A stretch of 64,000 nt of DNA, taken from positions 1-64,000 of IMG/VR virus record IMGVR_UViG_3300045988_141072; one strand, written 5' to 3'. Below, one piece after another: positions 3,936-53,666 of the stretch. The number at the start of each line of letters is the position of its first letter. Within the stretch, counting starts at the first letter, position 1. The translations under genes and the position numbers were made by a program. Under the pieces are notes generated by a model. It was not told where the DNA came from, ran no database searches, and worked only from the letters and a program-made list of their open reading frames with translations. Source of the DNA: a virus.

Positions 3936-3978
3936 GACAATAATACATTGAAAGAAATCTTTCGTTCGGAGGTAATAC

Positions 3979-5111: not shown

Positions 5112-5564
5112 ATGAGCAAGAAAGAAGAATGGATGGTTCATATTTGGGGTGGTGCATGGAATCACGATGCCAATCCATCCATCGAGAAAGATTTAGGTAT
5201 AAAAGAGGGTTATTACTATTTTAATACTGAAGAAGAAAAGAATAAGTTTATTCAGTTAATCAGGCAGGATAAATATGAGAAACAAGGACTGGCAACTGAT
5301 TGTAAACATGGAATTATAACTCATAAGAGGACAATTTTTGTTGCTACTCTCAAATATAAGGATAAAACATTTGTCATTCATTACGACTTAGGATATGAAT
5401 ATCCAGAAGATAGTGCAATTTTCTATTTCACAGAAGGTAATTTTGGTTGTGATTGCAATAGAAGTCTTGCTATTAGATGGGAATATGGAGAAGATGCAAT
5501 TCCTGAATTACCTTGTGGAGATGAAATTGAAATGGCAGATTATCATGTCGAGTATCAAGATTAG
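5112..5564 (+). CDS. hypothetical protein
   Basis: ORF track; coupled to the upstream GGAGAATAA. Confidence 0.7.
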   Translation: MSKKEEWMVHIWGGAWNHDANPSIEKDLGIKEGYYYFNTEEEKNKFIQLIRQDKYEKQGLATDCKHGIITHKRTIFVATLKYKDKTFVIHYDLGYEYPEDSAIFYFTEGNFGCDCNRSLAIRWEYGEDAIPELPCGDEIEMADYHVEYQD

Positions 5565-5655
5565 TAGAGAATAATAAAAAGTAATCTCTGAAATACCTTA
5601 AAATCAAGGCTTTCAGAGGTTGAAAAAGCCAAGGAAAACCACGTTTCTTTCGAGG
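5565..5655 (+). repeat. Conserved intergenic element, copy A (TAGAGAATAA + hairpin + AAAAAGCC + dyad)
   Basis: TAGAGAATAA at 5565-5574. Hairpin CTCTGAAATACCTT/AAGGCTTTCAGAG at 5586-5618. The block TTTCAGAGGTTGAAAAAGCCAAGGAAAACCACGTTTCTT is about 80 percent identical by eye to 37931-37970. Confidence 0.6.
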
Positions 5656-7578: not shown

Positions 7579-7857
7579 ATGGCTTGGAGTTATGAAAATT
7601 TAAAATCTGCAACAGATAAGGAAACAGCCGATAAAATATGGCGCAATTATTTAGATGGAACAGATGAATTATGCACCATTTTTAGAACAATTGTTAGTTT
7701 ATCAAATGATGATACCAATTCAAAAATTGAAAAATTAATGGAAAGGCTATCTGAGACTAAGAAACCAGAAAAAGTTATGTCTGATGATGATAGAGATATG
7801 ATTGAGGAGTTCCTTGAATATCTACAACATAAAAATGAAAATAAAGATTCTGAGTAA
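7579..7857 (+). CDS. hypothetical protein
   Basis: ORF track. Confidence 0.6.
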   Translation: MAWSYENLKSATDKETADKIWRNYLDGTDELCTIFRTIVSLSNDDTNSKIEKLMERLSETKKPEKVMSDDDRDMIEEFLEYLQHKNENKDSE

Positions 7858-7931: not shown

Positions 7932-9251
7932 ATGTATTGTGCTTATATCACAACATTAAAAGGATTAAGAAAACATAGCAACGCTGATAGATTACAGTGT
8001 GTAGAAGTATTTGGACAGAATGTAATTGTAGATTTGAGTTATCAGGAAGGACAGAAAGTAATTTTCTTCCCATCTGACGGTCAGTTATCACTTGAATATG
8101 CGACAGATAATAACCTTGTCAGAAAGAAAGACGAGAATGGAAACAACATTGGTGGTTATATGGATGCTGAGAAGAGAAATGTGACTGCTATTAGACTTAG
8201 AGGTGAAAAGTCAGAAGGTCTTGTATTACCAATTGAGACACTTGCTAAGTATACAGATATTTCAAAATTAAAAGATGGCGATCAGATTACAGTTCTTGGT
8301 GGTCATGAGATTTGTCAGAAATATATCCCAAGAGGAAAAAATCGTTCAAGAAGTAATGGGAATGGTGCAAATAAAAAGAATAAGTTTCAGAAAGAAACTG
8401 TATCATATCCATTTTTCGAGGAGCATAAAGATACTGCACAGCTTGCGTATAATATGTCAGCATTTAAGCCAGGAGATACGATTTATATTACTCGTAAGCT
8501 TCACGGAACATCTGCTCGTACCATGAAAACAGTTAAGATTACAAAGAAGAATAGTAAGCTGAGAAAGTTTTTACATATGCAGCAAAAGGTTACAAGAGAA
8601 GTTTCTGTTGTATCTGGTAGCAGAAGAGTCGTATTAAAGGATATGACAAAGAACGATGGATATTATTCTGATAATGGATTCAGAAAAAAATATCATGATT
8701 TATTAAAAGACAAGCTTCCTGAAGGTGCTGAGATTTTCTATGAAATTGTTGGCTATGTAAATGAAACAACACCAATTATGGGTTCAGTATCTAATAAGGG
8801 AGTTAAGGAAAAAGAATTTACAAAGAAATTTGGCGACACCACAACATTCTCATATGATTGTGAGCCAGGTGAAAATGAGATGTATGTATATCGAATGACA
8901 ATGACAACAGCAGATGGAACAGTTGTTGAAGTACCTTGGGAGACTGTAGAAGTATGGTGTGACAAGTTAGGTGTTAAACATGTACCTGATTTAGAGAAGT
9001 TTATTTTTACTACACCAGAAGATTTGAAAGAAAGAGTAAATAAATATCTTGATGGTATGCCAGCAGATGAAATCGGCAAGACACATGTTGCCGAAGGTGT
9101 AGTTGTTCGTATTGATAACAGAGCAACATTCACGGCTTATAAGGATAAGGTGTTTGAATTTAAGGTAATTGAGGGAATCGCCAAAGATACATCTGATGTA
9201 CCTGATATGGAAGAAGCTGAAGAGTTGTTTGAGGAGACTTTAAATGAGTAA
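7932..9251 (+). CDS. ATP-dependent RNA ligase, DraRnl/Rnl5-like (N-terminal OB-type module plus nucleotidyltransferase domain)
   Basis: Motif I lysine in ITRKLHGTS (compare the KxHGT of Rnl2-type ligases); EIFYEIVGY (motif III-like); HVAEGVVVR (motif IV); AYKDKVFEFK (motif V). The N-terminus (..LRKHSNADRLQCVEVFGQNVIV..) resembles a tRNA-binding OB module. Confidence 0.8.
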   Translation: MYCAYITTLKGLRKHSNADRLQCVEVFGQNVIVDLSYQEGQKVIFFPSDGQLSLEYATDNNLVRKKDENGNNIGGYMDAEKRNVTAIRLRGEKSEGLVLPIETLAKYTDISKLKDGDQITVLGGHEICQKYIPRGKNRSRSNGNGANKKNKFQKETVSYPFFEEHKDTAQLAYNMSAFKPGDTIYITRKLHGTSARTMKTVKITKKNSKLRKFLHMQQKVTREVSVVSGSRRVVLKDMTKNDGYYSDNGFRKKYHDLLKDKLPEGAEIFYEIVGYVNETTPIMGSVSNKGVKEKEFTKKFGDTTTFSYDCEPGENEMYVYRMTMTTADGTVVEVPWETVEVWCDKLGVKHVPDLEKFIFTTPEDLKERVNKYLDGMPADEIGKTHVAEGVVVRIDNRATFTAYKDKVFEFKVIEGIAKDTSDVPDMEEAEELFEETLNE

Positions 9252-10134
9252 ACCTACATTGTATATCATGTGTGGTCTGTCTGGCAGTGGTAAATCAACC
9301 ATTGCCACTCAGATTGCCAATGAAAATCCAAATACAGTAATTGTATCATCGGATGCGATTCGTGAAGAATTGACAGGTAATTACGAAGACCAACAACATA
9401 ATGAAGAAGTGTTTAAGATTTTTCATGATAGAATCCGTAAGAATTTAGAGAATAAAAAGAATGTAATTGCAGATGCAACTAATCTGACTATGAAATCTCG
9501 CAGAGCAATTATGATGAAAGTAAATGGTTTAAATGTCAGGAAAGTATGTGTAATTATTCCAAAGCCATTTGAACAGTGCAAAAAAGATAATTTACATAGA
9601 GAACATCCTGTATCTGACTTTGTGTTGGATAAGCAGATTAGAAAATTCCAGATTCCGTTCTATGAGGAAAATTTCGATGCCATTAAAATTTATGATCTAC
9701 ATAAAAAACATAAATTATCTGTGCCAGAAATGATACAACAGATGGATAATTTTGATCAACAAAATCCTCATCATACAATGACGCTGGATAAACATTGTAG
9801 AAATACATATGAGTTATTTTGTAAGAAGAATTATCCATTAGAATTTAACATAGCTGCAATATTGCATGATTATGGGAAACTGTTTTGTAAAACAACGGAT
9901 GAAAATTGCATAGCACATTTTTACGATCATAATTCAATTGGTTCATATTTGGTATTGGAAAACTTAGTTGGCGAATATAAGTATGGTCTTTTAGATATTT
10001 GTTTCCTTATTAATTACCATATGATGCCTTTTAGTTGGGATACTGATAAAGCAAAACAGCGTTGGAAAGAAAGATTCGGAGAATATAAATATAAGATGCT
10101 TTTAGATTTTAACGAATGTGATAGAGCGAGGTAA
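9244..10134 (+). CDS. bifunctional end-healing enzyme: N-terminal P-loop polynucleotide kinase plus C-terminal HD phosphohydrolase
   Basis: Walker A is CGLSGSGKST. HD-domain signatures are AAILHDYGK and FYDHNSIG. Overlaps the ligase gene by 8 nt. Confidence 0.8.
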   Translation: MSKPTLYIMCGLSGSGKSTIATQIANENPNTVIVSSDAIREELTGNYEDQQHNEEVFKIFHDRIRKNLENKKNVIADATNLTMKSRRAIMMKVNGLNVRKVCVIIPKPFEQCKKDNLHREHPVSDFVLDKQIRKFQIPFYEENFDAIKIYDLHKKHKLSVPEMIQQMDNFDQQNPHHTMTLDKHCRNTYELFCKKNYPLEFNIAAILHDYGKLFCKTTDENCIAHFYDHNSIGSYLVLENLVGEYKYGLLDICFLINYHMMPFSWDTDKAKQRWKERFGEYKYKMLLDFNECDRAR

Positions 10135-12220: not shown

Positions 12221-13234
12221 ATGAACAATGAAAATAAGAATACTAATTCATTACGAAAAGCAAAAACACTTGATGAATTATTAAATACGTGTCCACGTAA
12301 TCAAATTATTGGTGATAATTTGGTTAGAGCATGGTCAAAAATTAATAGTGTAAAGTACAAGAAAATAGTTTGCTCGATTTCAGGTGGATCAGATAGTGAC
12401 GTGATGCTTGATATTGTATGGCGATGCGATAAAGATAATAAAGTTGATTATGTTTGGTTTGATACAGGTCTTGAATATCAAGCGACCAAGGATCATCTAA
12501 AATATTTGGAAAACAAATATAATATAAAGATAAAACCATATAAGGCAATTAAGCCTATTCCGTTATCATGTAAACAATATAGTCAACCGTTTATAAACAA
12601 ACAAGCTGCTGAATACATAGATAGACTTCAAAGACATGGTTTTAAATGGGAAGATAAATCGTTTGATGAATTATATAAGGAATATCCTAAGTGTAAAGCT
12701 GCTTTGCTATGGTGGTGTAATTTAAAGAAATCGAATGCTTTTAATATTGCAAATAATAAATGGCTCAAAGAGTTTATTATTGAAAATCCACCAACATTTA
12801 AAATCTCATCAAAATGTTGTCAATATGCAAAAAAGGATGTTTCTCATAAATTGATAAAAGAAAATACATATGAATTAAATATAGTTGGTGTGCGAAGAGC
12901 AGAAGGTGGTGTTAGAGCCACATCCTATAAGTCTTGTTTTAGCGAAGGCGATGATGGATGCGATAATTATAGACCTCTATTTTGGTATAAAGATTCTGAC
13001 AAAATTGATTATGAAAACGTTTATAATGTTGAACATTCAGATTGCTATGTTGTTTATGCCTTGCCAAGAACAGGTTGCGCAGGTTGTCCATTTGGAAGAG
13101 ATTTTGAGAATGAACTTGAAGTTATTCAAAAATATGAACCAAAACTATATAAGGCTGTAAATAATATTTTTGGAGATTCTTACGAATATACAAGGAAGTA
13201 TCGTGAATTTGTAAAGAAAATGAATAAAAAGTAG
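12221..13234 (+). CDS. PP-loop ATP pyrophosphatase, PAPS-reductase-like (phage DndC/IbrA-type family)
   Basis: PP-loop is SISGGSDSDVM. The C-terminal LPRTGCAGCPFG is typical of phage PAPS-reductase-like proteins. Confidence 0.7.
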   Translation: MNNENKNTNSLRKAKTLDELLNTCPRNQIIGDNLVRAWSKINSVKYKKIVCSISGGSDSDVMLDIVWRCDKDNKVDYVWFDTGLEYQATKDHLKYLENKYNIKIKPYKAIKPIPLSCKQYSQPFINKQAAEYIDRLQRHGFKWEDKSFDELYKEYPKCKAALLWWCNLKKSNAFNIANNKWLKEFIIENPPTFKISSKCCQYAKKDVSHKLIKENTYELNIVGVRRAEGGVRATSYKSCFSEGDDGCDNYRPLFWYKDSDKIDYENVYNVEHSDCYVVYALPRTGCAGCPFGRDFENELEVIQKYEPKLYKAVNNIFGDSYEYTRKYREFVKKMNKK

Positions 13235-13292
13235 AGAATAACAAATTGAGAGGTTACGAAAGCCTTGAAAAATAAGGCTTTTAGAATCTCAA
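13232..13292 (+). repeat. Conserved intergenic element, copy B
   Basis: TAGAGAATAA at 13232-13241 (its TAG is the stop codon of the upstream gene). Nested hairpin: TTGAGA..AAAGCCTT / AAGGCTTT..TCTCAA at 13246-13292. Confidence 0.55.
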
Positions 13293-19745: not shown

Positions 19746-19865
19746 AAGAGAGAATAATACAATAGGTAGTATATTTCATAAAAACACATACTATATATAG
19801 TGGTTAGGCAAATTAAAACTACTATATATAGCAACAAAATGGACAAGAAATATCGGTTTCCTTGG
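19746..19865 (+). promoter_or_regulatory. Intergenic regulatory cassette, copy 2
   Basis: AGAATAATACAATAGGTAGT at 19751-19770. Palindromic ACTATATATAGT at 19790-19801, with a second ACTATATATAG at 19821-19831. CAAGAAATATCGGTTTCCTTGG follows. Confidence 0.55.
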
Positions 19866-23153: not shown

Positions 23154-23978
23154 ATGTACGAACCAGTAATTAAATGGAGTGGAAGTAAGAGAAGTCAGGC
23201 TGAAAAGATTTTAACATTTTTTCCAAAAGAGATTGATACCTATTATGAACCGTTTTGTGGTGGAGCTTCAGTTTTAAGGAGGCTTCTCGACAGTGATATA
23301 CGAGTTAAGCATTATATATGTAGTGATTTGAATAGTGGGTTGATTGACTTATGGAATAAAATCATTAACAATCCGTCAGAAGTTTCTTCTTATTATAAGA
23401 AGCTTTGGAATGAATTAAATACAGATGACGATAAGCAACGAAAGAAAGAATATTTTGCCAATGTTAGGGACAGATACAACAAAGAGCATAATCCATTAGA
23501 TTTTATGTTTATTATGAGAACAACAACCAATGGTATGCCAAGATATAACCGTAATGGCGAATTTAACAATTCATTTCATGTAACCAGAAATGGTATTATT
23601 CCTGAAACATTTAAGAAGATAATTTTTGAATGGAGTCAATTATTAAAACAGAATGATGTTAAATTTATCAGTTGTTCGTATGAAGATATAAAACCAACAG
23701 AGAATGATTATATGTATCTTGATCCACCTTATGCAAATACAAAAGGTATGTATTATGGAACTATTGATTATGAAAAATTTTGGGATTATTTAAGACAGTT
23801 GCTATGTAGATATGCTTTATCTTTTGATGGTAAGAGTGGTGATATAGATAATACTTGGAATGTTCCTAAAGACATATATACAACACATGAGTATTTGCTA
23901 AGTGGTAATAGCAGTTTTAAGCGTACAATTGGTAAATCAAACGACAGCATTGTTTACGAAAGTTTGTATGTAAAGTAG
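23154..23978 (+). CDS. dam: Dam-family (D12 class) N6-adenine DNA methyltransferase
   Basis: KWSGSKRS, EPFCGGASV and LDPPYANT motifs in the canonical Dam order. Confidence 0.9.
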   Translation: MYEPVIKWSGSKRSQAEKILTFFPKEIDTYYEPFCGGASVLRRLLDSDIRVKHYICSDLNSGLIDLWNKIINNPSEVSSYYKKLWNELNTDDDKQRKKEYFANVRDRYNKEHNPLDFMFIMRTTTNGMPRYNRNGEFNNSFHVTRNGIIPETFKKIIFEWSQLLKQNDVKFISCSYEDIKPTENDYMYLDPPYANTKGMYYGTIDYEKFWDYLRQLLCRYALSFDGKSGDIDNTWNVPKDIYTTHEYLLSGNSSFKRTIGKSNDSIVYESLYVK

Positions 23979-24218
23979 AGAATATATAAGTAGCAAGAAA
24001 CTTGCGTTTCATTGGCTTCGCAAACCTAGTGTTTATAAGGGTTTCAGAGATTAAAAAAATCAAAAATGCTCAAATCGAGCGAAATTCCCTAATTTTCAAT
24101 GATTTTTAGAGAATAATAAAAATGAGGTGCTGAAAACCCTTATAAATCAAGGGTTTTACAGTATCAATATCAAGAAACAGAGAATATAAGAATAGCAAGA
24201 AATCACTGTTTCATGTGG
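23976..24218 (+). repeat. Composite intergenic region: about 40-nt direct repeats flanking a structured 160-nt insert
   Basis: TAGAGAATATATAAGTAGCAAGAAACTTGCGTTTCATTGG (23976-24015) versus CAGAGAATATAAGAATAGCAAGAAATCACTGTTTCATGTGG (24178-24218). The insert holds TTATAAGGGTTTCAGAG (24033-24049), TAGAGAATAA (24107-24116) and the hairpin CTGAAAACCCTT/AAGGGTTTTACAG (24130-24161). Confidence 0.6.
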
Positions 24219-24236: not shown

Positions 24237-24635
24237 ATGGATACACAGTTATGTAAAGCAAAGAGTATTAATAGTGGTCAATGGGTTTATGGATATTATG
24301 TAAAAGGTTTAGATATGTATGGCAAAGAAATTCATATGATATTTGAACCAGCAACAGTATTCTATTCTCATGGCGAAACCGATGGCTTTGAAGAAATAAA
24401 TCCAAAGACATTGTGTAGATGTACTGGTAGCCATGATAAGAATGGCAAGTTAATCTTTGAAAACGACATTCTAAACGGAGAATTATATAATGTAGTCTCT
24501 TATGGAAATGGTGAGAATGAATTTCTCGGAATGAATGTTGGTTGGTATGTTCAGAGAGATAACTTTGAATCATGGTGTGAATTAAATGATTTGGAAATGT
24601 ATGAAGTAACAGGAAATATCTTAGATAATATCTAA
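24237..24635 (+). CDS. YopX-like protein
   Basis: Pattern ..GQWVYGYYV...TL.RCTGSHDKNGKLIFENDIL.. is typical of the YopX family. Confidence 0.7.
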   Translation: MDTQLCKAKSINSGQWVYGYYVKGLDMYGKEIHMIFEPATVFYSHGETDGFEEINPKTLCRCTGSHDKNGKLIFENDILNGELYNVVSYGNGENEFLGMNVGWYVQRDNFESWCELNDLEMYEVTGNILDNI

Positions 24636-25989: not shown

Positions 25990-26028
25990 TAGAGAATAAC
26001 AAAGTGGAACGTCAGAGATGGCGTTCCA
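25990..26028 (+). repeat. Conserved intergenic element, copy D (TAGAGAATAA plus hairpin)
   Basis: TAGAGAATAA at 25990-25999. Hairpin TGGAACGTC/GGCGTTCCA at 26005-26028, with TCAGAGA in the loop. Confidence 0.5.
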
Positions 26029-35614: not shown

Positions 35615-37897
35615 TTGGATGAAGATGAGATTTATAAATTCACAGCGATAATTACATATGAGCAATACTACTCGGATGATACAACGTGGGGAGTGTTTGG
35701 ATTTTCAACAAAAGATGATATTCCATTCTTTACAAAACCTACAAAAACATTCGATCCGTTTGGTGATAATAATTCTGCAAATGATACTGAAGATCAAAAG
35801 ATGAGTAAGTTGGCAGGAAAGATGCAACATTTAGTTGTGGGTGGAGAATATGTAGTTAAGGCGAAATACAAAAAAGATAAAAAATATGGCGATCAATATA
35901 CACCGATTGTCATATACGCCATTATTCCACAAAGCAGAGAAACACAACTATTATTTTTGAAATCAATGATTCCTGAATGGATGGCTGATAATTTAATAAA
36001 TGCATATCCAAATGTAGTAAATGATGTAGCGAATGGTACATTAAAAACTATTGATTACAGTCTTGTAAAAGGTGTTAGAGAGATTACTTGGAATAAAATT
36101 AAGGAAAAAATCATTAATAACTATCTTATTTCTGACATTATCTCGATGCTAAAACCAATCGGTGTCACTTATGCAATGATTAAAAAATTGCTTTCAGAAG
36201 AACCAAATCCAGTTTTATTAAAGCAAGAGTTAGAGAAAAATCCATATATCATGACAAAAATTGATGGGATTGGGTTTCGTAAATGCGATGACCTTGCATT
36301 AAAATTGAAGCCAGAACTGATTGACTCTACGCAAAGACTTGTAGCTTTTATCCAATATTATTTTAAAGAATTGGGAGAAAGTAAAGGTCATACATGGTGT
36401 TCTGAAAAAATTTTAAGAGCAGCCATAAGTAATAATGTTTATGAGTGCTGTAATAAGGTCGATTGGCTATTAGAAAATAATGACTTTCTTCATATTAATA
36501 ATGGTCGAATTGGTCTGAAATATTATTACGATATTGAGATGCAGATTTATCATTTGATTCTGAATAAATCTAAAATTGAAACAACAATCAATATTTCTAA
36601 GGAAGCGATTGATAAAGCAATTAAACATGCAGAAGAAGAACAAGGATTTGATTATGTAGTAGAACAGTTAGACACGATTAATAAAAGCTTACATAGAACT
36701 GTTAGTCTGATAACTGGAAAAGCAGGAACTGGTAAAACGTCAATAATGCGAGCAATTGTTAAGGCTTATATGGAGAATAATTATATGATGACAGCTTCAG
36801 CATTATCGGCAATGGCAGCTCAAAGAATTACAGAAGCAACAGAATTTCCTGCAATGACTATTCATCGAACACTTGGATGCCAGGGGTTAAATGATTTTAC
36901 ATATAACAAGGACAATCATTTAATTACAGATGTTGCATTTCTCGATGAAGGAAGTATGGTTAATGCCAGTTTGTTTTTACATTGGCTTGAAGCAATCGGA
37001 GATAATACAAGAATTATTATTTCAGGAGATCATAAGCAGTTACCGCCTATCGGATTTGGTAATGTGTTCTCAGATTTGATTGAAATGTTTGATGATTCAG
37101 TTGTGAGCAAGTTAGTAAAACCTATGAGACAGGCAGAAAAATCAGGTATTCTTGTTGATGCTAATAAGATTCGTGAGAATATAAATCCTATATCTGAGAA
37201 GTTACAACCACGAATTATTCATGGTGAGTTACAAGACATGTATTATATGTTCCGTACAAATCGACAGTCATTATTTAATATTGCTGTTAAGACATTCATT
37301 AAATCTGTTGAGTCAGATGGAATTGACAATGTGGTTATTGCAGTACCTCGTAGAAAAGATTGTTTGAATAGTACCAATGAGATTAATAAGGTTATTCAAA
37401 ATGAGTTACTTGGTGATGTTTTAGAGAGCATTGAAGGTTTTGATACAACTTTCAAACTTGGTGCAAAAGTCATGCAAACAGTTAATGATTATGACAAAAA
37501 TGTATTTAATGGCGAGATTGGTTATGTGACAAAAATCAGTGAAAGATATGATGGTAAGAAAAAAGAAGAGTATTGTGAAGTAACTTACACTGATATTTTT
37601 GGAAAAGACAAAATTATTGAATACACAAAGAAAGAGTTAGCTGCTTTGGATCTTGCTTATGCTATGACAGTACATAAATTACAGGGTGCTGGTCGAAAGA
37701 CAGTAATTGGTATTATTGATAATACACATCATCAGCTTCTTGATAACTGTATGCTTTACACATTATTGACCAGAGCAAAGAAGAGATGTTTGTTATTAGC
37801 TGAACCAGAGGCATTTTTACAGTGTATTAGAACAAGTCATAATAATAGAAACACTTGGATGATGTTAGAAACAGAGAATAATACAGTAGAAGAGTAA
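35615..37897 (+). CDS. RecD-like SF1 DNA helicase
   Basis: Walker A is ITGKAGTGKTS. Also FLDEGSM, SGDHKQLPPIG, AMTVHKLQGAG and LLTRAKK. TTG start. Confidence 0.9.
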   Translation: MDEDEIYKFTAIITYEQYYSDDTTWGVFGFSTKDDIPFFTKPTKTFDPFGDNNSANDTEDQKMSKLAGKMQHLVVGGEYVVKAKYKKDKKYGDQYTPIVIYAIIPQSRETQLLFLKSMIPEWMADNLINAYPNVVNDVANGTLKTIDYSLVKGVREITWNKIKEKIINNYLISDIISMLKPIGVTYAMIKKLLSEEPNPVLLKQELEKNPYIMTKIDGIGFRKCDDLALKLKPELIDSTQRLVAFIQYYFKELGESKGHTWCSEKILRAAISNNVYECCNKVDWLLENNDFLHINNGRIGLKYYYDIEMQIYHLILNKSKIETTINISKEAIDKAIKHAEEEQGFDYVVEQLDTINKSLHRTVSLITGKAGTGKTSIMRAIVKAYMENNYMMTASALSAMAAQRITEATEFPAMTIHRTLGCQGLNDFTYNKDNHLITDVAFLDEGSMVNASLFLHWLEAIGDNTRIIISGDHKQLPPIGFGNVFSDLIEMFDDSVVSKLVKPMRQAEKSGILVDANKIRENINPISEKLQPRIIHGELQDMYYMFRTNRQSLFNIAVKTFIKSVESDGIDNVVIAVPRRKDCLNSTNEINKVIQNELLGDVLESIEGFDTTFKLGAKVMQTVNDYDKNVFNGEIGYVTKISERYDGKKKEEYCEVTYTDIFGKDKIIEYTKKELAALDLAYAMTVHKLQGAGRKTVIGIIDNTHHQLLDNCMLYTLLTRAKKRCLLLAEPEAFLQCIRTSHNNRNTWMMLETENNTVEE

Positions 37898-37975
37898 TTT
37901 GGATTTCTGGAATGCCCATAAATAGGGCGTTTCAGAGACTCAAAAAGCCAATGAAAGACGGATTTCTTATTAGTC
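37871..37975 (+). repeat. Conserved intergenic element, copy E
   Basis: ACAGAGAATAATACAGTAGA overlaps the end of the helicase ORF. Hairpin TCTGGAATGCCC/GGGCGTTTCAGA at 37906-37937. TTTCAGAGACTCAAAAAGCCAATGAAAGACGGATTTCTT parallels 5611-5650. Confidence 0.6.
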
Positions 37976-41029: not shown

Positions 41030-41254
41030 GTGATTAATATTAGAGATCCAAATAGATTATATAATTTTTATAACGAAGTAACCCGATTACACATGACATA
41101 CATGCCTGATTGGAGAGTTGGTCAGTTTTGGATGAACTTTTTAGGCTGGGTTCAAAATGTAAAGAAACGAGATCCGTTCTTCCCAGAAGAATCAGAAATG
41201 CTTACATATTTAAGAGAATTTTGTGGAGAGGAGAATAAAGAATACGGCAAATAA
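41030..41254 (+). CDS. hypothetical protein (start codon uncertain)
   Basis: ORF track. GTG 41030 overlaps the SD AGGAGG; ATT 41039 is at canonical spacing. Confidence 0.55.
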   Translation: MINIRDPNRLYNFYNEVTRLHMTYMPDWRVGQFWMNFLGWVQNVKKRDPFFPEESEMLTYLREFCGEENKEYGK

Positions 41255-42413
41255 ATTAATTGATTTAACAGGACAGAAGTTTGGAAAATTGACAGTTATT
41301 GGAAGATCAGAAGACAAAGTATTACCATCAGGGAGAAAAGTTGTTAATTGGAAATGTATATGTGATTGCCAAAGTGGACAAGAATCACCTAAATATACAT
41401 TTAAAACATGGGATTCATTAAAACGTAATCCGTCACCTTCATGTGGATGCGATACAAATGAAAAACATAGAAAATCAAGAATAAAAAATTTAAAAGGGAT
41501 GAAATTTGGTAAATTAACTGTTTTAGAACAAGCAGAAGATCAAATAAATGAAAATGGAAGACATTATATTATATGGAAATGTATATGCGATTGTCAATTA
41601 AATAATGAAAATCCCCAATATACATATGTTAGAGGTACGCATTTAACAAGTGGTGATGTTAAATCTTGTGGGTGTCTTGCAAAAGAACTTTCTTCAAAAA
41701 GGGAATGCATAGACATAATAGGAAACAAATATGGCATGTTAACGGTTGTTTCAAGAGGCGAAAATACAAAAACAGGTCAAACTCAATGGTGGTGTCAATG
41801 TGATTGTGGAAGCGATTTAAAATTAATTACAAAATCTAATTTAATTAGCGGTAATACATTTTCATGTGGTTGTTATAATCAAAGGAAAAGAAAAGATAAA
41901 AATAACACATATGATTTATCGGGTGAGTATGGTATTGGTTATACATCCAAAGGAGAAGAGTTCTATTTTGACTTAGAAGATTATGACAAAATAAAAGAAC
42001 GATATTGGTTTAAAACTAATAATGGTTATTTTGCAACAAAAAGTTATGGAATTCCTATTATGCTACATAGATTTATTTTAAATTTACCTTCTTTCCAATA
42101 TGATAATCCAGTAGATCACATCAATCATAATACATTTGATAATCGAAAAGTTAATTTGAGGATTACAAATAACTCTCAAAATAATATGAATAAAGGATTG
42201 GCATCTAATAATACAAGTGGTGTAAAAGGTGTTAATTTTGATAAAAATAAAAATCTTTGGATTGCACGTATTTCTGCATATAAAGTCAGGTATCATTTAG
42301 GTGGATTCGTTAATAAACAAGATGCAATTAGGGCAAGAAAAGAAGCGGAAGAAATTCTACACGGAGAATATTCATATGATAATTCAATCAAAAAAGGAGA
42401 ACTCAATGGATAA
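41223..42413 (+). CDS. HNH-AP2 homing endonuclease with three N-terminal Cys-rich repeats
   Basis: HNH is VDHINHNTFDNRKVNLRITNNSQNNMN. AP2 is SGVKGVNFDKNKNLWIARI..HLGGF. Three repeats of about 60 aa follow G.KFGKLTV...W.C.CDC....CGC. The start is uncertain and overlaps the upstream ORF. Confidence 0.8.
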   Translation: MERRIKNTANKLIDLTGQKFGKLTVIGRSEDKVLPSGRKVVNWKCICDCQSGQESPKYTFKTWDSLKRNPSPSCGCDTNEKHRKSRIKNLKGMKFGKLTVLEQAEDQINENGRHYIIWKCICDCQLNNENPQYTYVRGTHLTSGDVKSCGCLAKELSSKRECIDIIGNKYGMLTVVSRGENTKTGQTQWWCQCDCGSDLKLITKSNLISGNTFSCGCYNQRKRKDKNNTYDLSGEYGIGYTSKGEEFYFDLEDYDKIKERYWFKTNNGYFATKSYGIPIMLHRFILNLPSFQYDNPVDHINHNTFDNRKVNLRITNNSQNNMNKGLASNNTSGVKGVNFDKNKNLWIARISAYKVRYHLGGFVNKQDAIRARKEAEEILHGEYSYDNSIKKGELNG

Positions 42414-47002: not shown

Positions 47003-47140
47003 ATGAAATTCAATTTTATAGATTGTATAGAATTTGAGATTGATTGGAAAGCTGTAGCAGCGATTGCAGCATGTGTACTTGGTTATGCAATCATAACAGT
47101 AATTCAGAAAGGAGATATACATATTGACAAAAGTAATTAA
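47003..47140 (+). CDS. small single-TM protein (45 aa) overlapping the nrdD start
   Basis: Hand-translated MKFNFIDCIEFEIDWKAVAAIAACVLGYAIITVIQKGDIHIDKSN*. SD is AAGGAGA. Its 3-prime end contains the SD and TTG start of nrdD. Confidence 0.4.
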   Translation: MKFNFIDCIEFEIDWKAVAAIAACVLGYAIITVIQKGDIHIDKSN

Positions 47141-50100
47141 AAGAGACTGTTCCGAAGTTGATTTTGACAAATCAAAAATCTCAACTGCAATTCTTAAAGC
47201 TATGAAGAATGGTTCAGGCATTGTAAAACCAAAGATTGCGGATGACATTGCAAATGAGATTGAAGAAGAGTGTAAGGATAAAGAAGAAGTAAGTATTTCC
47301 GACATTGAATCAATGGTTTATGATAAATTGATTACAAAAAAACAGAGACTTACGGCAAAGGCTTATGAGGGATATAGAAGTATTAGAGAATTTCAGAGAG
47401 AAAACGAAAATACAACAGATGAACAAATTTCAGAATTATTAGATGGTACTAGTGATTATTGGAATAATGAAAATTCCAATAAAAATGCTCGTTTATTAAC
47501 AACTCAACGTGATTACATGGCAGGCATTATTAGTACAGATATTACAAGGAGATTCCTTTTGCCACTGGAAGTAGTACAAGCACATGATGATGGATTACTT
47601 CATTTTCATGATGCGGATTATTTCGGACAAAATGCAATAACGAATTGTAGCTTAATTAATTTGGAGGATATGTTACAAAATGGCACATGTATTAATAAAG
47701 TAAAAATTGATAAACCACATAGATTTATCACGGCTATGACCATTGCAACTCAAATAATTACAGCAGTTACGAGTAGCCAATATGGGGGAGCGAGCATAAC
47801 TTTAACACATTTAGCTCCATTTGTTAGGGATAGTTACAATTCTTATTATAAAAAATATATTAAGTGGGGATTTTCTGATGAAAGTTCTAAAAAATACGCA
47901 AGTATTGATACCAAAAAAGAAATTATTGATGGAGTACAGACATTTAATTATCAGTGCAATAGTATGACAACAACTAATGGACAGTCTCCATTTTTAAGTG
48001 TCTTTATGTATCTTGGAGAAACAGAAGAATATAAGAATGAACTTGCTATGATCATTGAAGAATTCCTCAACCAAAGAATTTTAGGAATGAAAAATGAAGT
48101 TGGCGTATATGTAACTCAGGCATTTCCAAAATTGCTTTATATTCTTGAAGAAGATAATATTACACCTAATTCAAAATATTGGTATTTGACAGAACTTGCA
48201 GCCAAATGTACTGCTAAACGTATGGTTCCTGATTATATATCTGAAAAGAAAATGAAAGAATTTAAAGAAAATAATTGTTTTCCTTGTATGGGATGTGTTG
48301 ACGGAAAAGAACTCGTTACATATAAGATTAAGAATAATTTATATGTAGAATCATTTGAAAGAATGTGGAGGAGGTTGTCTGATTCATTTGAAATCAAACA
48401 TCAGTATTCCGAAACTAATCCTAATTTATATATGGATTTATCAGAAGTAACGATTTATGATACAGAAAAAGGATTTGTTGATACAAAAAGAATTATTCGT
48501 AATGTATCAAGCGAATGGTTAGATGTTGATTTTTCAAATGGTAGAAGGTTGTTATGTACAACAGATCACCCATTAACATTAAGAAATGGTAGAAATGTAC
48601 ATGCATCAGAGTTAAAACTTGGAGATAAAATTTTAATCAATTCAAATCAGTATAACGAAGAATCAATTCTATTCAATATTGATAAAGCATGGCTACTTGG
48701 ATTTATGCTATGTGATGGATGTTATCAAAATAATCATGTATTCGCTTCTATTGCTGCAACAGGAGAAGATGAAATTGAAGAAAAATTTAGTAACACATTT
48801 ACTAAGTATTTCGGTCTGAATGTTAAAACAATTCTACAAGAACGTGGTAAAAAAGGAACATACAAAGATTTATGTGCAATTTCAGATAATAACGGTGGAA
48901 TTCAATATGTGGCAAATTATTTTACATCAAAATTTGGAGGTATCAATAAAGTAAATAGACAAATTCCAAATGAAGTATTCTCATGGAATTATGAAGCAAA
49001 GCTTGCCTTTTTTGCAGGAATGATTGATGCAGACGGATATATCAATTCACATCAAAACGAAAAGAACTTTTCTACTGTTCAAATCGGCTCTACTAATAAA
49101 GAATTAGCACTTCAGCAAATGGCGTTAGCACAATCTATTGGAATCCCAGCTAAAATTTATCATAATCATTACACAAAGAAAAATCCGGAATTGATTAGAT
49201 ATAGGGTTGAATTTTACCCAACTGATGAATTGATTAATTACATTGTATGCAAAAAGAAATGTGATAACTATATTGAATCAAATGTATCAGGATATGCTAT
49301 TGAATCAGAAGTTATCAAGATTAATCCAATTCATAAAGAAATGTATAGTTATGATGTGACAACATCTAGTGAGCATTTTGAAGTTAGTGGTATTTATAGC
49401 CACAATTGTCGTAGTTTCCTTTCACCATATAAGGATGAAAATGGTAATTATAAATTTTATGGACGCTTCAATCAGGGCGTAGTAACTATTAATCTTGTAG
49501 ATGTGGCTTTATCATCAGAAGGTGATTTTGATAAGTTTTGGCAATTAATGGAGCAAAGAACAGAACTTTGCCACAAAGCACTAAAATGTAGACATGAGAG
49601 ACTTGAAGGAACTTTATCAGATGTTGCACCTATTTTATGGCAGGACGGAGCATTTGCTAGACTTAAAAAGGGTGAGAAAATTGATAAATTACTTCATGGT
49701 GGATATTCGAGCATTTCACTTGGATATGCTGGACTTTACGAATGTGTAAAGTATATGACAGGAAAATCTCATACAGATCATTCTATTGGACATGATTTTG
49801 GGATTAAAGTAATGGAGTTCTTAAATAATAAATGCGAACAGTGGAAGAGTGAAGAAAATATTGGATATAGTACATATGGATCCCCGATAGAAAGCACAAC
49901 GTATAAATTCGCCAACTGTTTAAAGAAAAGATTTGGAATTATTGAAGGTATAACCGACAGAGATTATATTACAAATTCATATCATATTTTTGTTAAAGAA
50001 CCAATCAATGCATTTGATAAACTCTATATCGAATCCGAATTTCAGTCATTATCTCTTGGGGGATCGATTTCTTATGTTGAAACTTCTGATATGACACAAA

Positions 50101-50393
50101 ATATTCCTGCAATTCTCGAAGTTATTAAATACATTTACGATAATATCATGTACGCAGAACTCAATACAAAGAGTGATTATTGTCAGGTTTGTGGTTATGA
50201 TGGTGAAATAAAAATTGTAGATGAAAATAATGAACTTATATGGGAATGCCCTAATTGTAAAAACAGAGATAAAACAAAAATGAATGTAGCAAGAAGAACA
50301 TGTGGATATATTGGGACAAATTTTTGGAATCAAGGACGTACCGAGGAAATTAATGAAAGATATGTTCACTTAACGGATATTGCGGAGGATTAA
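47124..50393 (+). CDS. nrdD: anaerobic ribonucleoside-triphosphate reductase (class III), interrupted by an intein
   Basis: ATP-cone VIKRDCSEVDFDKSKI. Conserved ..CMG|CRSFLSPY.. is split by the insert. Zn site CQVCGYDGE..CPNC. Glycyl-radical motif RRTCGYIGT. Confidence 0.9.
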   Translation: MTKVIKRDCSEVDFDKSKISTAILKAMKNGSGIVKPKIADDIANEIEEECKDKEEVSISDIESMVYDKLITKKQRLTAKAYEGYRSIREFQRENENTTDEQISELLDGTSDYWNNENSNKNARLLTTQRDYMAGIISTDITRRFLLPLEVVQAHDDGLLHFHDADYFGQNAITNCSLINLEDMLQNGTCINKVKIDKPHRFITAMTIATQIITAVTSSQYGGASITLTHLAPFVRDSYNSYYKKYIKWGFSDESSKKYASIDTKKEIIDGVQTFNYQCNSMTTTNGQSPFLSVFMYLGETEEYKNELAMIIEEFLNQRILGMKNEVGVYVTQAFPKLLYILEEDNITPNSKYWYLTELAAKCTAKRMVPDYISEKKMKEFKENNCFPCMGCVDGKELVTYKIKNNLYVESFERMWRRLSDSFEIKHQYSETNPNLYMDLSEVTIYDTEKGFVDTKRIIRNVSSEWLDVDFSNGRRLLCTTDHPLTLRNGRNVHASELKLGDKILINSNQYNEESILFNIDKAWLLGFMLCDGCYQNNHVFASIAATGEDEIEEKFSNTFTKYFGLNVKTILQERGKKGTYKDLCAISDNNGGIQYVANYFTSKFGGINKVNRQIPNEVFSWNYEAKLAFFAGMIDADGYINSHQNEKNFSTVQIGSTNKELALQQMALAQSIGIPAKIYHNHYTKKNPELIRYRVEFYPTDELINYIVCKKKCDNYIESNVSGYAIESEVIKINPIHKEMYSYDVTTSSEHFEVSGIYSHNCRSFLSPYKDENGNYKFYGRFNQGVVTINLVDVALSSEGDFDKFWQLMEQRTELCHKALKCRHERLEGTLSDVAPILWQDGAFARLKKGEKIDKLLHGGYSSISLGYAGLYECVKYMTGKSHTDHSIGHDFGIKVMEFLNNKCEQWKSEENIGYSTYGSPIESTTYKFANCLKKRFGIIEGITDRDYITNSYHIFVKEPINAFDKLYIESEFQSLSLGGSISYVETSDMTQNIPAILEVIKYIYDNIMYAELNTKSDYCQVCGYDGEIKIVDENNELIWECPNCKNRDKTKMNVARRTCGYIGTNFWNQGRTEEINERYVHLTDIAED
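48294..49406 (+). mobile_element. Intein (371 aa) with LAGLIDADG homing-endonuclease domain inside nrdD
   Basis: Begins with Cys (CVDGKELV) right after ..FPCMG and ends ..IYSHN, followed by the +1 Cys of CRSFL. LAGLIDADG blocks are AWLLGFMLCDGCY and LAFFAGMIDADGYI. The length is a multiple of 3. Confidence 0.85.
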
Positions 50394-52136: not shown

Positions 52137-52164
52137 ATAAAAAGCTTGATTTTATAGGCTTTTG

Positions 52165-52204: not shown

Positions 52205-52214
52205 TAAAAGTGCA

Positions 52215-52304
52215 TGTGGACGAAAATAATATTGAAATGTCCACATCTCGTCCACATAAATTTAAAATGTGGACGAGAAAACAATATTGAAAATGTGGAC
52301 GAGG
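52215..52304 (+). repeat. attP arm-type repeat cluster 2
   Basis: TGTGGACGAAA at 52215-52225, TGTGGACGAGA at 52268-52278 and TGTGGACGAGG at 52294-52304 are forward copies. GTCCACA plus TCTCGTCCACA at 52239-52256 are inverted. The 26-nt units TGTGGACGA..ATATTGAAA.TGT are directly repeated. Confidence 0.65.
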
Positions 52305-52355
52305 TATGTTATACTCCTAATAAAAGGAACATCCGTTCTTGAAAGGAGTATAACT

Positions 52356-53666
52356 ATGGGTGATGTGTTAATTAAAGCAAGAACTCGTAACAGTGGTAAA
52401 GTAGTATATGAATATCGGTTTGAAGTTGCTTCTATAGATGGCAAACGTCAATGGAAGACTAAATCAGGCTTTGCTACAAAAAGAGAAGCTAGAGAAGCTG
52501 GTAAGATAGCACAGCAAGCATATGAACATGTGGGACAAGCTGTTGAACCTTCAGATATGTCATATGCTGATTTCCTAGATATGTGGTTAGAGAAAGACTG
52601 TAAACTCACTTGCAAATCTTCTACGCTTGTAGGATATGAGAAAAAGATTAGATTATATATCAAACCTGAAATCGGCTCATATAAGCTAAAAACTATTACA
52701 AAAGATACATTACAAGATTTCATTACCAAAATGTATGATGAAGGCTACTCAATCAATACAGTGAACTCAGTTAAAGGATTATTAACAAAATCATTTACTT
52801 ATGCTTTAGACAGACATTATATCATATCAACACCTGCAATAAATTTAGTAGTTCCGACAAAGAAACAACCAAAGAAAACTACGAGAAGTAAGAAACACGT
52901 TTATATTCCTCAAGATATTATGCAAAAAATATTTAAAAGATTCCCCGAGGGCTCGTCAGCTTATATCCCTATTATGATTGGTTATCATACAGGATTACGC
53001 TTGGGAGAGATATATGGACTTGTATGGGAAGATATTGATTTTAAGAATAAAACACTCTCAGTTAATAGACAAGTTCAATGGGAAGCAGGCGAAGCAAGAT
53101 CCGAAGAAGAAAAGAAAAAAACTAATGGTACATCTAAATCTAATGGGTATTGGTACTTCTCTAAGCCTAAATATAATTCTTTTAGAGCAATAAATCTTGA
53201 CGATGTAATATTAGAAGCTCTGAAAAAAGAACACGACAAACAGCTAAAAGCAAGAGAATATTTTGATAAATATTACAATCGATATTATAGTGAAAATGAA
53301 ATGACATATGCTAAAACTGATGATATATTACCAATGAATAAAGTATCTCAAGAAAAGTCACCTTATGAAGTTGATTTTATTTGTAGACGAGAAGATGGCT
53401 CATATATCAGTGCAAGAACAACACAACATACGTCCTCTATAATTCATAAACAGTTACATTTTCCTCAGTACGATACACATAGTTTAAGACACACTCATGG
53501 AACAATATTGTACGAAAATGGAGCTAGTTTTATGTATATTAAGGAGAGGTTAGGACATAAAAATCTACAGACAACAATTGAGATATACACAAATCATTAT
53601 ACAGATACAATAAATAAAAATGGCAATATTGTTTTAAATAATGCTTTTAGTAAGGAGAATGTATGA
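52356..53666 (+). CDS. int: tyrosine integrase
   Basis: ATG 52356 follows AAGGAG. N-terminal arm-binding type domain (..VVYEYRFEVASIDGKRQWKTKSGFATKREA..). Catalytic region HSLRHTHGT, LGHKNLQTTIEIYTNH. Confidence 0.95.
   Translation: MGDVLIKARTRNSGKVVYEYRFEVASIDGKRQWKTKSGFATKREAREAGKIAQQAYEHVGQAVEPSDMSYADFLDMWLEKDCKLTCKSSTLVGYEKKIRLYIKPEIGSYKLKTITKDTLQDFITKMYDEGYSINTVNSVKGLLTKSFTYALDRHYIISTPAINLVVPTKKQPKKTTRSKKHVYIPQDIMQKIFKRFPEGSSAYIPIMIGYHTGLRLGEIYGLVWEDIDFKNKTLSVNRQVQWEAGEARSEEEKKKTNGTSKSNGYWYFSKPKYNSFRAINLDDVILEALKKEHDKQLKAREYFDKYYNRYYSENEMTYAKTDDILPMNKVSQEKSPYEVDFICRREDGSYISARTTQHTSSIIHKQLHFPQYDTHSLRHTHGTILYENGASFMYIKERLGHKNLQTTIEIYTNHYTDTINKNGNIVLNNAFSKENV

Follow-up and report, generated by a model that had tools for sequence, protein, structure and literature searches.

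We found that the repeated intergenic elements in this phage DNA are made up of a gene-end box (M1), a hairpin and a gene-start dyad (M3), all of which sit where related phages swap genes. The explanation that we favor, and to which we give about an even chance of being correct, is that the elements are intercistronic cassettes of three independent signals, similar to the PeSL cassettes of T4-type phages, and that they also serve as recombination linkers. The window, by which we mean the whole stretch of 64,000 nucleotides that was analyzed, covers the rightward early or accessory-gene region of a ~150-kb temperate SPbeta-like Lachnospiraceae phage and reaches into the beginning of its leftward late operon. 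The replication genes are arranged as SSB-like, AAA_24/Sak4-like, DnaB-like helicase, primase, RecJ and PolIII-alpha, which is the order of yorF-yorL in SPbeta, and a YopX-domain protein is also encoded; an earlier model reading of the DNA (the sequence-only reading) was thus right to place the elements in an SPbeta-like background. The phage is temperate and encodes a tyrosine integrase (52269-53666) with an arm-binding domain and an architecture usual for phages. A megablast search against cultured phages gave no match to the window, PolIII-alpha was at most 34% identical to that of any deposited phage, and our literature search found no published account of SPbeta-like phages of Lachnospiraceae. 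Prophage relatives of the family were found in Roseburia and Acetatifactor. More than 150 IMG/VR contigs of 90-190 kb each carried the module, and the family was common in human-gut viromes. The TTTCAGAGnnTnAAAAAGCCA module was detected in at least 119 IMG/VR stretches, every one on contigs of this SPbeta-like Lachnospiraceae phage family, and M1, the hairpin and M3 were all limited to the early region of this family, which has gene order in common with SPbeta. Scans of the window for known RNA genes (Rfam at the gathering threshold, and tRNA) returned zero matches. Relaxed Rfam scans of two elements gave chance matches only (U6 and mir-87, 17 bits), and Rfam membership was rejected.

The sequence-only reading had described five or six structured copies sharing one layout. 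A covariance-model scan of the window identified four members (5583-5622, 13251-13290, 24126-24165 and 37902-37941) with scores of 38-48 bits, and the sequence-related hairpins, all on the + strand, span 5582-5622, 13250-13290, 24126-24165 and 37898-37944. At the first site, the M1 box TAGAGAATAA (5565-5574) directly follows the stop codon at 5562-5564. It precedes a hairpin with the core CTCTGAAATACCTT/AAGGCTTTCAGAG (47.9 bits; fold -16.2 kcal/mol, z -5.3; with conservation in 19 or more related loci), the AAAAAGCC spacer box (5623-5630) and the M3 dyad AGGAAA-ACCACG-TTTCTT (5632-5649), which lies directly before the Shine-Dalgarno sequence GAGGAGG; in 11 loci the homology to relatives breaks off at 5646-5650. 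Downstream, the M1 box CAGAGAATAA (37872-37881) falls within the last codons of RecD2 and was kept in a group with 81% RecD2 identity despite differing flanks. The hairpin that follows it, TTTCTGGAATGCCC/GGGCGTTTCAGAGA with an outer 5 bp and three G-U pairs, scored 47.9 bits, folded at -24.9 kcal/mol on the + strand versus -14.4 on the - strand and was conserved in 44 loci. After it come the AAAAAGCC spacer box (37942-37949) and the M3 dyad ATGAAA-GACGGA-TTTCTT (37951-37968), at whose last bases homology with relatives ends. The full layout was present only in these two copies, since AAAAAGCC and the TTTC dyad follow the hairpin only at 5623-5649 and 37942-37968. The blocks at 5611-5650 and 37931-37970, judged by eye to be about 80% identical, were ~78% identical in our comparison. 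At the next site, the TAG of the M1 box (13232-13241) is the stop codon of the gene at 12221-13234, and the hairpin with the core AAAGCCTT/AAGGCTTT (37.7 bits; -18.0 kcal/mol on the + strand versus -12.8 on the - strand) had neither a AAAAAGCC box nor M3 downstream.

The copies near 24 kb belong to a non-coding cassette bordered by two M3 dyads, AAGAAA-CTTGCG-TTTCAT on the left (23995-24012) and AAGAAA-TCACTG-TTTCAT on the right (24197-24214), the latter before the Shine-Dalgarno sequence of the YopX-like gene. Upstream of the cassette lies the M1 box TAGAGAATAT (23976-23985), whose TAG is the stop codon of a D12 methyltransferase gene. Within it we found a decayed hairpin remnant (24013-24053; 12.1 bits, E 1.6) with a fold no better than shuffles (z 0.23), a further M1 box TAGAGAATAA (24107-24116), the family hairpin AAAACCCTT/AAGGGTTTT followed by ACAG (39.7 bits; -19.5 kcal/mol on the + strand versus -13.5 on the - strand) and the M1 box CAGAGAATAT (24178-24187). 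The remnant covers the copy reported at 24033, and its hairpin is intact in the homologous cassette of five related loci (L014, L018, L026, L040 and L113). As a separate observation, the ~210-nt cassette, with its M3, hairpin, ~75 nt and second hairpin followed by UUUUG, looks like a small RNA gene. At 25990-25999 the M1 box TAGAGAATAA precedes a stable hairpin, GGAACGTC/GGCGTTCC (26005-26028; -15.3 kcal/mol, z -7.1), that lies outside the family and gave no covariance-model match at E<=10. The structured copies proposed earlier were therefore reduced to four family hairpins, with one decayed and one stable but unrelated. The leading box was recovered at each place where it had been reported (TAGAGAATAA at 5565, 13232, 24107 and 25990, and CAGAGAATAA at 37872), as was the location of the elements after the last genes of blocks, the upstream genes stopping at 5564, 13234, 25977 and 37897. 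The box and the dyad had been taken as parts of a five-copy element; they proved instead to be independent motifs, with 41 copies and 23 sites, respectively. Overall, the reported observation was partly confirmed and its interpretation partly supported.

The hairpins are 33-47 nt long and occur at ~4 copies per 60 kb, with stems of 13-19 bp that contain internal loops or bulges and with a conserved sequence and loop (AUAAAUC or AUAAAUA). The stable hairpins had RNA folding energies between -16 and -25 kcal/mol (z-scores, -5.3 to -6.8), and the sense RNA was more stable than the antisense in all four, by a margin of 0.3 to 10.5 kcal/mol. Of the ~100 hairpin matches in relatives, nearly all were on the sense strand. 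The covariance analysis that had been suggested as a check on the structure showed compensatory changes, with 10 of the 13 base pairs changed on both sides and 90% of cells paired; shuffled and slid controls scored far lower. Through these compensatory changes the pairing is kept, whereas the arm sequence is not. Like the stem of an intrinsic terminator, each hairpin is a G+C-rich sense-strand stem-loop downstream of a stop codon. The usual U-tract (at least five of eight U directly after the stem) was lacking from all four, and a terminator scan of 1-20 kb reported none of them. The earlier statement that the hairpins lack a U-tract was right by this usual measure, the full stem being followed by an A-rich tail (GUUGAAAAAG, ACUCAAAAAG, UAUCAAUAUC and AAAAUAUAAA), but a short U run (U3-4) is present after the G+C-rich top, inside the lower stem. 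Four related loci carried the 37898 hairpin in exactly inverted form, with a weaker sense-RNA fold (-14.3 kcal/mol instead of -21.7); strong pairing of the RNA is thus no strict requirement, at least over short times. In their behavior the hairpins correspond to RNA structures of the sense strand, placed 3' of stop codons, and not to promoter operators. A MITE-like reading was dropped, as comparison by eye of the ends of the ~100-nt element gave no terminal inverted repeats.

M1, (R)GAGAATAA, was present 41 times where 6.8 copies were expected, always on the + strand (strand ratio of AGAGAATA, 41:0) and 40 times in the early region, and it was enriched 19-fold at gene junctions. The junction copies span 244-41238, with GAGAATAA starting at 244, 255, 2123, 2385, 2818, 4186, 5100, 5567, 6333, 6586, 7465, 7892, 10308, 13234, 15000, 15292, 16219, 17859, 18193, 19750, 20244, 20889, 21326, 21572, 22402, 22478, 23090, 24109, 24711, 25992, 30525, 37874, 37996, 39419 and 41231; copies inside genes were found at 9448, 17097, 28886, 34858 and 36773, also on the + strand. 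The antisense orientation gave zero copies in the early region, and sense-strand copies were absent from 20.7 kb of late operon (L122) and from the window at 53.8-64 kb. The box combines stop codons in two frames with a purine run, which becomes a Shine-Dalgarno sequence when its first base is G. Its TAA is the stop codon of 10 genes, which is why ten unrelated proteins end in Gly-Glu or Arg-Glu. We detected no -35 element or other partner upstream of M1 (at most 0.4 bit per position in 24 sites), and neither M1 nor M3 had upstream information beyond the boxes themselves. To our knowledge, none of the sigma-H, sigma-F/G, ECF, T4 late and extended -10 consensus sequences fits beyond the core.

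M3 is an 18-bp dyad, AWGAAA-N6-TTTCWT, with 34 matches at 23 sites against 4.06 expected matches, all within 1-47 kb. On the + strand the 18-mers span 356-46979, starting at 356, 1110, 3483, 4442, 4927, 5632, 7853, 10323, 11611, 12094, 14636, 16233, 19845, 20579, 21297, 23995, 24197, 37951, 38621, 39790, 41007 and 46962, with a relaxed copy at 3948; 12 of the 23 sites matched on both strands. M3 lies directly 5' of Shine-Dalgarno sequences, and 20.7 kb of late operon contained no sense-oriented copy. From the C of TTTC to the start codon the distance was 8-45 nt in half of the sites and larger in the rest, and in several the Shine-Dalgarno sequence begins only 3-5 nt after TTTC. The geometry is operator-like, with 6-bp inverted arms around a 6-bp spacer, and the arms are conserved in sequence without covariation. 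The TTTC dyad of the sequence-only reading is hence operator-like in form, but with its 23 sites it stands as a motif apart from the hairpin element. The SAS/ESAS sequences of Cluster K mycobacteriophages (Pope et al. 2011, PMC3203893) are likewise present in many copies in one orientation, are restricted to the non-structural half of the genome, as M3 is, and lie just upstream of gene starts, with an inverted repeat beside about half of the copies. However, SAS is a 13-mer that contains the Shine-Dalgarno sequence and lies 3-7 bp from the start codon, whereas M3 is a dyad 5' of the Shine-Dalgarno sequence; the two have no sequence similarity and the hosts are in different phyla.

The location of these signals at sites of gene exchange was evident from comparisons with relatives. 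The module downstream of RecD2 is common to 44 loci, and after one conserved TTTC these loci continue into 26 different downstream contexts; column conservation, 0.92-1.0 through the C of TTTC, dropped to 0.4-0.5 from the following base onward. When 619 BLAST homology ends were examined, 39% fell within 6 nt of M1/M3 sites, which make up 3.9% of the sequence compared. Right-hand ends peaked at 0, +2 and +3 from the C of TTTC and left-hand ends at the start of the dyad. One and the same non-coding cassette, flanked on each side by an M3 dyad, was found in three distinct genomic settings.

A precedent exists in the PeSL cassettes of T4-type phages, in which a stem-loop is joined to a regulatory motif and which bring about the shuffling of modules (PMC2839356). 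The elements described here share several features with the PeSLs (Arbiol et al. 2010, PMC2839356; Comeau et al. 2014, PMC4122927): both are short, composite, intergenic cassettes that lie between a stop codon and the Shine-Dalgarno sequence that follows, contain G-T pairs in a stable stem-loop, cluster among small accessory genes and border the insertions, deletions and replacements that distinguish close relatives. They differ in that PeSLs have a consensus sigma-70 promoter, of which there was none in the window cassettes, and in their conserved boxes, one an asymmetric 8-9-mer at gene ends and the other an 18-bp dyad. Moreover, the boxes in the window are numerous but the hairpin, conserved in sequence, is rare (~4 per 60 kb), and the phage, with its Firmicute host, is of the temperate, SPbeta-like kind. 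Since the three parts occur independently and in either order (M3 precedes M1 at 7853/7892 and 20579/20598), we use the word cassette for co-occurrence and not for a fixed unit. From this anatomy we infer roles in termination or stabilization, in protein binding and in recombination. The hairpin would most likely be a leaky intrinsic terminator or attenuator, an RNA 3'-end protector, or both, and would set the amount of read-through into the next accessory-gene block. M3 would most likely be bound by a dimeric, phage-encoded DNA-binding protein controlling each cassette. The boxes are the sole sequence common to otherwise unrelated junctions, which suggests that recombination between them exchanges gene cassettes among related phages. 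Against this explanation stand the U run of only 3-4 after the G+C-rich stem top and the failure of the hairpins in the terminator scan, the lack of a sigma-70-type -35/-10 pair such as PeSLs have, the absence of a candidate DNA-binding protein for the boxes among the ~70 proteins scanned, and the exact inversion of the hairpin in four related loci.

The boxes could instead silence the prophage, M1 and/or M3 being multi-copy immunity-repressor sites that block elongation in the early region while the hairpins are ordinary RNA neighbors. We consider this possible but unlikely. In the stoperators of Cluster A mycobacteriophages (L5 gp71; PMC9283540), the defining pattern is that of M1: an asymmetric site with more than 20 copies (about 30 at junctions in the case of M1), located in short intergenic spaces, often over stop codons, and oriented with transcription. 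The 6-bp arms and 6-bp spacer of M3 also resemble a dimer operator whose arms are conserved rather than covarying, and the phage itself is a temperate one that carries an integrase. However, stoperators are genome-wide and present in all transcription units including the structural operon, whereas M1 and M3 are missing from the late operon; M1 has no sequence similarity to stoperators, and the proteins scanned included no repressor candidate. In addition, the window carries a separate, more classical operator array, the phased palindromes at 262-341 and 19789-19831 with 31-bp phasing.

We judged it improbable that each cassette is a transcription unit of its own, with M3 (or M1) as a compact promoter recognized by a phage sigma factor or RNA polymerase and the hairpin as the terminator. 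The early region did not show an excess of sigma-70-type promoters (105 matches versus 118 expected, none in the modules) or of classical terminators, which would agree with such a system, as would the distance of 8-45 nt that separates the end of M3 from the start codon at half of the sites. Mosaic borders exactly at the end of M3 are expected if the exchanged unit is a transcription unit, the non-coding cassette resembles a small RNA gene, and M1, a stand-alone 8-9-mer without a -35 element, recalls -10-only late promoters. But scans with Pfam or PHROGs of ~60 proteins encoded in the window, and of a further 10 encoded in the 10 kb that lie upstream in a relative, found no sigma factor, RNA polymerase or HTH regulator. 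The SPbeta polymerase YonO uses a single late promoter (PMC5467207), which also makes comparison with it uninformative, as one known promoter gives no consensus. A Shine-Dalgarno sequence 3-5 nt after TTTC would leave almost no leader at several sites, and a variable N6 within a promoter would be unusual. The terminator/promoter module of the sequence-only reading thus fits the anatomy and has a precedent in PeSLs, but our scans gave neither a promoter consensus nor a phage sigma factor or RNA polymerase.

The early mRNAs of T7 and SP82 are polycistronic RNAs that are cut at hairpins into stable segments. The hairpins found here, like intrinsic terminators and the RNase III hairpins of these phages, lie on the sense strand directly after stops within one long operon. 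As a further alternative, RNase III or another host endonuclease would cleave these long, imperfect hairpins and turn the early RNA into stable segments. The stems with their internal loops and bulges, the conserved sequence and loop, the intercistronic position with sense-strand bias and the lack of a proper U-tract after the full stem would all suit such processing. Yet the hairpins number only ~4 in 60 kb, their stems fall short of the about two helical turns that RNase III substrates usually have, and inverted variants persist; we find this explanation quite improbable.

A recombinase acting on M3 appears very unlikely in either form that we considered. The broader form, in which the 18-bp dyads bounding every accessory cassette are phage-encoded crossover sites of an integron-like early region and the inversion-prone hairpins are part of the substrate, we would credit only slightly; the narrower one, site-specific cassette exchange with the M3 dyads as core-type sites of a phage recombinase in an integron-like array, we find highly doubtful. 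Inverted arms flanking a spacer of 6-8 bp are typical of integron attC and tyrosine-recombinase core sites, and M3 has a 6-bp spacer. The razor-sharp borders at the edges of the dyads, the cassette found between two dyads in three contexts and the presence of a tyrosine integrase would also be in line with such exchange. However, the spacers of all 23 M3 sites are different, which would block classical tyrosine recombination, and the integrase, with its arm-binding domain and its own repeat set at 52214-52279, looks like an ordinary attP integrase. General or microhomology crossovers in the short common arms would explain the same borders.

Finally, the functional analogy to SPBRE proposed by the sequence-only reading, in which the dyad-symmetric, intergenic hairpin elements are DNA sites of an MrpR-like master repressor, has next to no likelihood and is contradicted at the sequence level, although the phage shares its gene order with SPbeta. 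SPBRE (Kohm et al. 2023, PMC10516654) is likewise a repeated intergenic element of an early region with the same replication-gene order. Its motif, derived from ten MrpR-bound SPbeta promoters (ACAAATACAAAwAATATGTATA; 10 copies in SPbeta), gave zero matches in the window with up to 4 mismatches, and SPbeta in turn had no hairpin-model match and no excess of M1 or M3. SPBRE sites lie in promoters and overlap a -10-like TATAAT, whereas the window hairpins are 3' of stop codons with no -35/-10 pair, and there are ~10 SPBRE per genome versus 41 copies of M1 and 23 sites of M3. The G-U pairing favors the sense RNA and the compensatory changes keep pairing rather than arm sequence, both of which speak against such an operator. 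Judged by sequence, the hairpin elements are thus not SPbeta repressor sites; as a weaker point, the phased palindromes may be a better SPBRE analogue in the window.

The elements mark accessory-gene turnover at precisely defined junctions in a phage family that is common in the human gut. If our explanation of PeSL-like cassettes is correct, a three-part junction code would account for the measured expression of long one-directional accessory arrays and for the way in which new genes slot in without breaking their neighbors. The boxes described here differ from host promoter consensus sequences; they give annotators a marker of cassette borders and experimenters short DNA and RNA targets that can be tested. 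The concept of mobile regulatory cassettes, known from the T4-type phages of Proteobacteria, would then also cover temperate SPbeta-like phages of Firmicutes.

The elements were found to be a composite of three independent motifs: a gene-end box (M1), an RNA hairpin and a gene-start dyad (M3). These motifs occurred in strong excess and with strict polarity, were restricted to the early region and coincided with recombination borders. The M1 sequence AGAGAATA was present 41 times on the plus strand and 0 times on the minus strand; its core, GAGAATAA, was observed 41 times against 6.8 expected and was enriched 19-fold at gene junctions. Ten unrelated genes used the TAA of M1 as their stop codon, and two further genes used its TAG. 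Because the GAGAATAA box forms the last codons and stop of the ten (ends 2130, 2392, 6340, 6593, 7472, 10315, 15299, 18200, 20896 and 39426), their unrelated products terminate in Gly-Glu or Arg-Glu. Copies of M1 that began with G also supplied the Shine-Dalgarno sequence for the gene that followed. The pattern ANKAAW-N6-TTTCHT matched 34 times (4.06 expected), at 23 sites that all lay between 0.3 and 47 kb. Since 12 of the 23 sites matched on both strands, M3 is an 18-bp dyad, AWGAAA-N6-TTTCWT, whose N6 spacer was different at every site. The distance from the C of TTTC to the next start codon was 8-45 nt at half of the sites, where the dyad thus abuts the Shine-Dalgarno sequence, and at four sites the upstream stop codon lay inside the left arm. 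In the sense orientation, M1 and M3 were absent from the late operon (53.8-64 kb of the window and 20.7 kb of a 95%-identical relative). In relatives, both motifs continued for 10 kb or more beyond the upstream edge of the window; they were sparser in more distant relatives (42-63% protein identity).

The hairpin structure was conserved and favored the sense RNA. With a covariance model seeded with 12 hairpins and the search filters off, we identified four family hairpins in the window, all on the plus strand with 38-48 bits, at 5583-5622, 13251-13290, 24126-24165 and 37902-37941. The sequence-only reading had proposed a family of five or six copies; the sequences it quoted were present and four members stood, while its copy at 24033 (24013-24053) reached 12 bits and folded no better than shuffled sequence, and the hairpin of its copy at 25990 (26005-26028) was stable yet unrelated to the family. 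The identity of ~80% that it gave for the copies at 5565 and 37871 measured ~78% over the named stretch, and its full layout held at these two copies, as AAAAAGCC and the TTTC dyad follow the hairpin only there. The compensatory changes that it had proposed to seek with a covariance model were found: across 38 distinct hairpin sequences, pairing was kept in 90% of cells and both sides had changed in 10 of 13 pairs, counts that take in the model's own seeds and an alignment fitted to the model. These changes mostly separated paralogous subfamilies (GCCC/GGGC, CCTT/AAGG and CCCTT/AAGGG). Pairing scores of shuffled and slid control alignments were far below those of the real hairpins. The sense RNA was the more stable strand in all four window hairpins (-16.2 vs -15.9, -18.0 vs -12.8, -19.5 vs -13.5 and -24.9 vs -14.4 kcal/mol), a gap due to G-U pairs, which points to a role for the hairpin in the rightward transcript. 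Three or four U residues (U3-4) lay 3' of the G+C-rich top of the stem but were paired with an upstream A run, the tail beyond the full stem was A-rich, and the family hairpins were not among the terminators reported by a terminator scan of 1-20 kb, in agreement with the earlier remark that a U-tract is lacking.

Hairpins were sparse, at ~4 copies per 60 kb, and all matches in relatives were on contigs of the same phage family. In four related loci (L001, L006, L070 and L071) orthologous to window 37904-37938, a 31-nt segment of stem and loop was exactly inverted, and the stability of the sense RNA fell from -21.7 to -14.3 kcal/mol. Since the inverted hairpin downstream of RecD2 was seen with two different loop variants, the inversion probably arose more than once; its form suggests template switching or recombination at a quasi-palindrome.

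The segment of M1, the hairpin, AAAAAGCC and M3 downstream of RecD2 was common to 44 loci, which then continued into 26 different sequences. Column conservation was 0.92-1.0 through the C of TTTC and dropped to 0.4-0.5 immediately after it. The same sharp break followed the common module downstream of gene 5112-5564, where a second homology border lay ~10 nt after M1. When the window was compared with 150 related loci by an unbiased BLAST search, 39% of 619 homology ends lay no more than 6 nt from M1 or M3, sites that make up 3.9% of the compared sequence; as position clusters, this was 39 of 169, and at junctions only, 29 of 60 clusters vs 24% of junction bases. Relative to the C of TTTC, right-hand ends peaked at 0, +2 and +3, and left-hand ends peaked on the first bases of the dyad, which, as judged from these alignments, locates the crossovers in the conserved M3 arms. 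We also identified a ~210-nt non-coding cassette with an M3 dyad at each border, consisting of a hairpin, ~75 nt of A-rich sequence and a second hairpin followed by UUUUG. It was present in the window (24013-24196, where its first hairpin is decayed) and in the related loci L014 (5340-5540), L018, L026, L040 and L113. In its three contexts it followed RecD2, followed gene 5112 or, in the window, lay between a methyltransferase and a YopX-like gene (YopX-domain protein at 24237), each with a different downstream gene. The cassette may be a small RNA gene.

The window (31% G+C) is part of a temperate SPbeta-like phage of ~150 kb infecting Lachnospiraceae, as indicated by its gene content and order, IMG/VR contigs and Lachnospiraceae relatives. 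Genes pointed rightward from position 1 up to ~53.6 kb and leftward in the remainder (53.8-64 kb). Pfam and PHROGs identified an SSB-like protein (24898), AAA_24 (26066), a DnaB-like helicase (27957), primase (29511), RecJ (30558), PolIII-alpha (32344), RecD2 (35615), an NAD-dependent ligase (42301), the intein-interrupted anaerobic ribonucleotide reductase NrdD (47124-50393), a tyrosine integrase (52269-53666) and, on the minus strand, tail-like proteins. The helicase-to-polymerase order was that of SPbeta yorG-yorL. Megablast gave no match to cultured phages, and PolIII-alpha was at most 34% identical to that of any deposited phage. RecD2 was 96-99% identical in many human-gut IMG/VR contigs of 90-190 kb, and 74-82% identical in genomes of Roseburia sp. 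1XD42-69, Acetatifactor muris and Lachnospiraceae MAGs. The NrdD intein carries a LAGLIDADG homing-endonuclease domain and parallels the intein of SPbeta bnrdE. Two RNA-repair genes encode an RNA ligase (7932-9251) and a kinase that bears an HD-phosphatase-like domain (9244-10134); just upstream in relatives (related locus L126, 3473-5882) were an RlaP nucleotidyltransferase and a CCA-adding enzyme, a set that suggests defense against tRNA-cleaving host nucleases. A 396-aa ORF without a Pfam match (41223-42413), directly upstream of the ligase gene and overlapping its start, contained internally repeated Cys-rich segments, noted by eye in the DNA, and may be a mobile endonuclease-like insertion.

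The hairpins had been likened to SPBRE, the operator of the SPbeta repressor MrpR, an analogy that the sequence comparison did not support. Ten bound promoters are named in the MrpR paper, whose text gives no SPBRE sequence (PMC10516654), and we derived a motif from SPbeta itself, ACAAATACAAAwAATATGTATA. This motif had 10 copies in SPbeta; a search of the window that tolerated up to 4 mismatches gave 0. SPbeta had no excess of M1 (11 vs 10.5 expected) or M3 (5 vs 5.2 expected) and no match to the hairpin model; the reported elements are therefore not SPBRE. Better candidates for an SPBRE-like repressor operator are two palindrome arrays: ATACAATAKATAGT at 262-341 (three copies, the last inverted, 31-bp phasing), with perfectly complementary 18-nt arms at 292-309 and 324-341, and TACTATATATAG at 19789-19831 (two copies, exact 31-bp phasing). 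AGAGAATAATACAATAG lay ahead of both arrays, each of which led into an M3 dyad and a gene start, and the same palindromes were found downstream of RecD2 in relatives. Separately, ATGTGGACGA repeats at 52214-52279 (two direct, one inverted) followed two strong classical terminators (51.84-51.87 and 52.15-52.21 kb) and lay immediately ahead of the integrase gene; these repeats may be arm-type sites of the integrase or the operator of its gene. In this terminator cluster a weak model match (19 bits, minus strand, 52140-52163), AAAAGCCUAUAAAAUCAAGCUUUU, shared the loop motif AUAAAAUCAA with the hairpin family.

The feature is thus real and more extensive than reported, with an anatomy that had been misread. 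We propose that the early region would be read as long rightward transcripts, in which the hairpin after a conserved gene would serve either for leaky termination or as a 3'-end or processing structure. A dimeric phage protein is predicted to bind M3, since the arms are conserved in sequence, do not covary and have an operator-like geometry. The boxes would serve as linkers in cassette exchange, as they are the only homology common to different junctions. The proteins scanned yielded no candidate sigma factor, RNA polymerase or repressor, and the elements may therefore instead be processing sites, site-specific recombination sites, stoperators or promoters; upstream of M1, neither a -35 element nor any other conserved partner was seen. 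Among described systems, the PeSL (promoter-early stem-loop) cassette of T4-type phages comes closest, although its defining sigma-70 promoter is absent from the cassettes of the window. Cluster A stoperators are a close analogy for M1 but have a genome-wide distribution that M1 does not match, and the start-associated sequences of Cluster K mycobacteriophages are a close analogy for M3 but differ in position relative to the Shine-Dalgarno sequence. Notable for their very sharp borders and for the abundance of their phage family, the elements appear from these comparisons to be a variant, with putative functions throughout, of the conserved regulatory and linker cassettes that sit where the accessory regions of phages have mosaic junctions.
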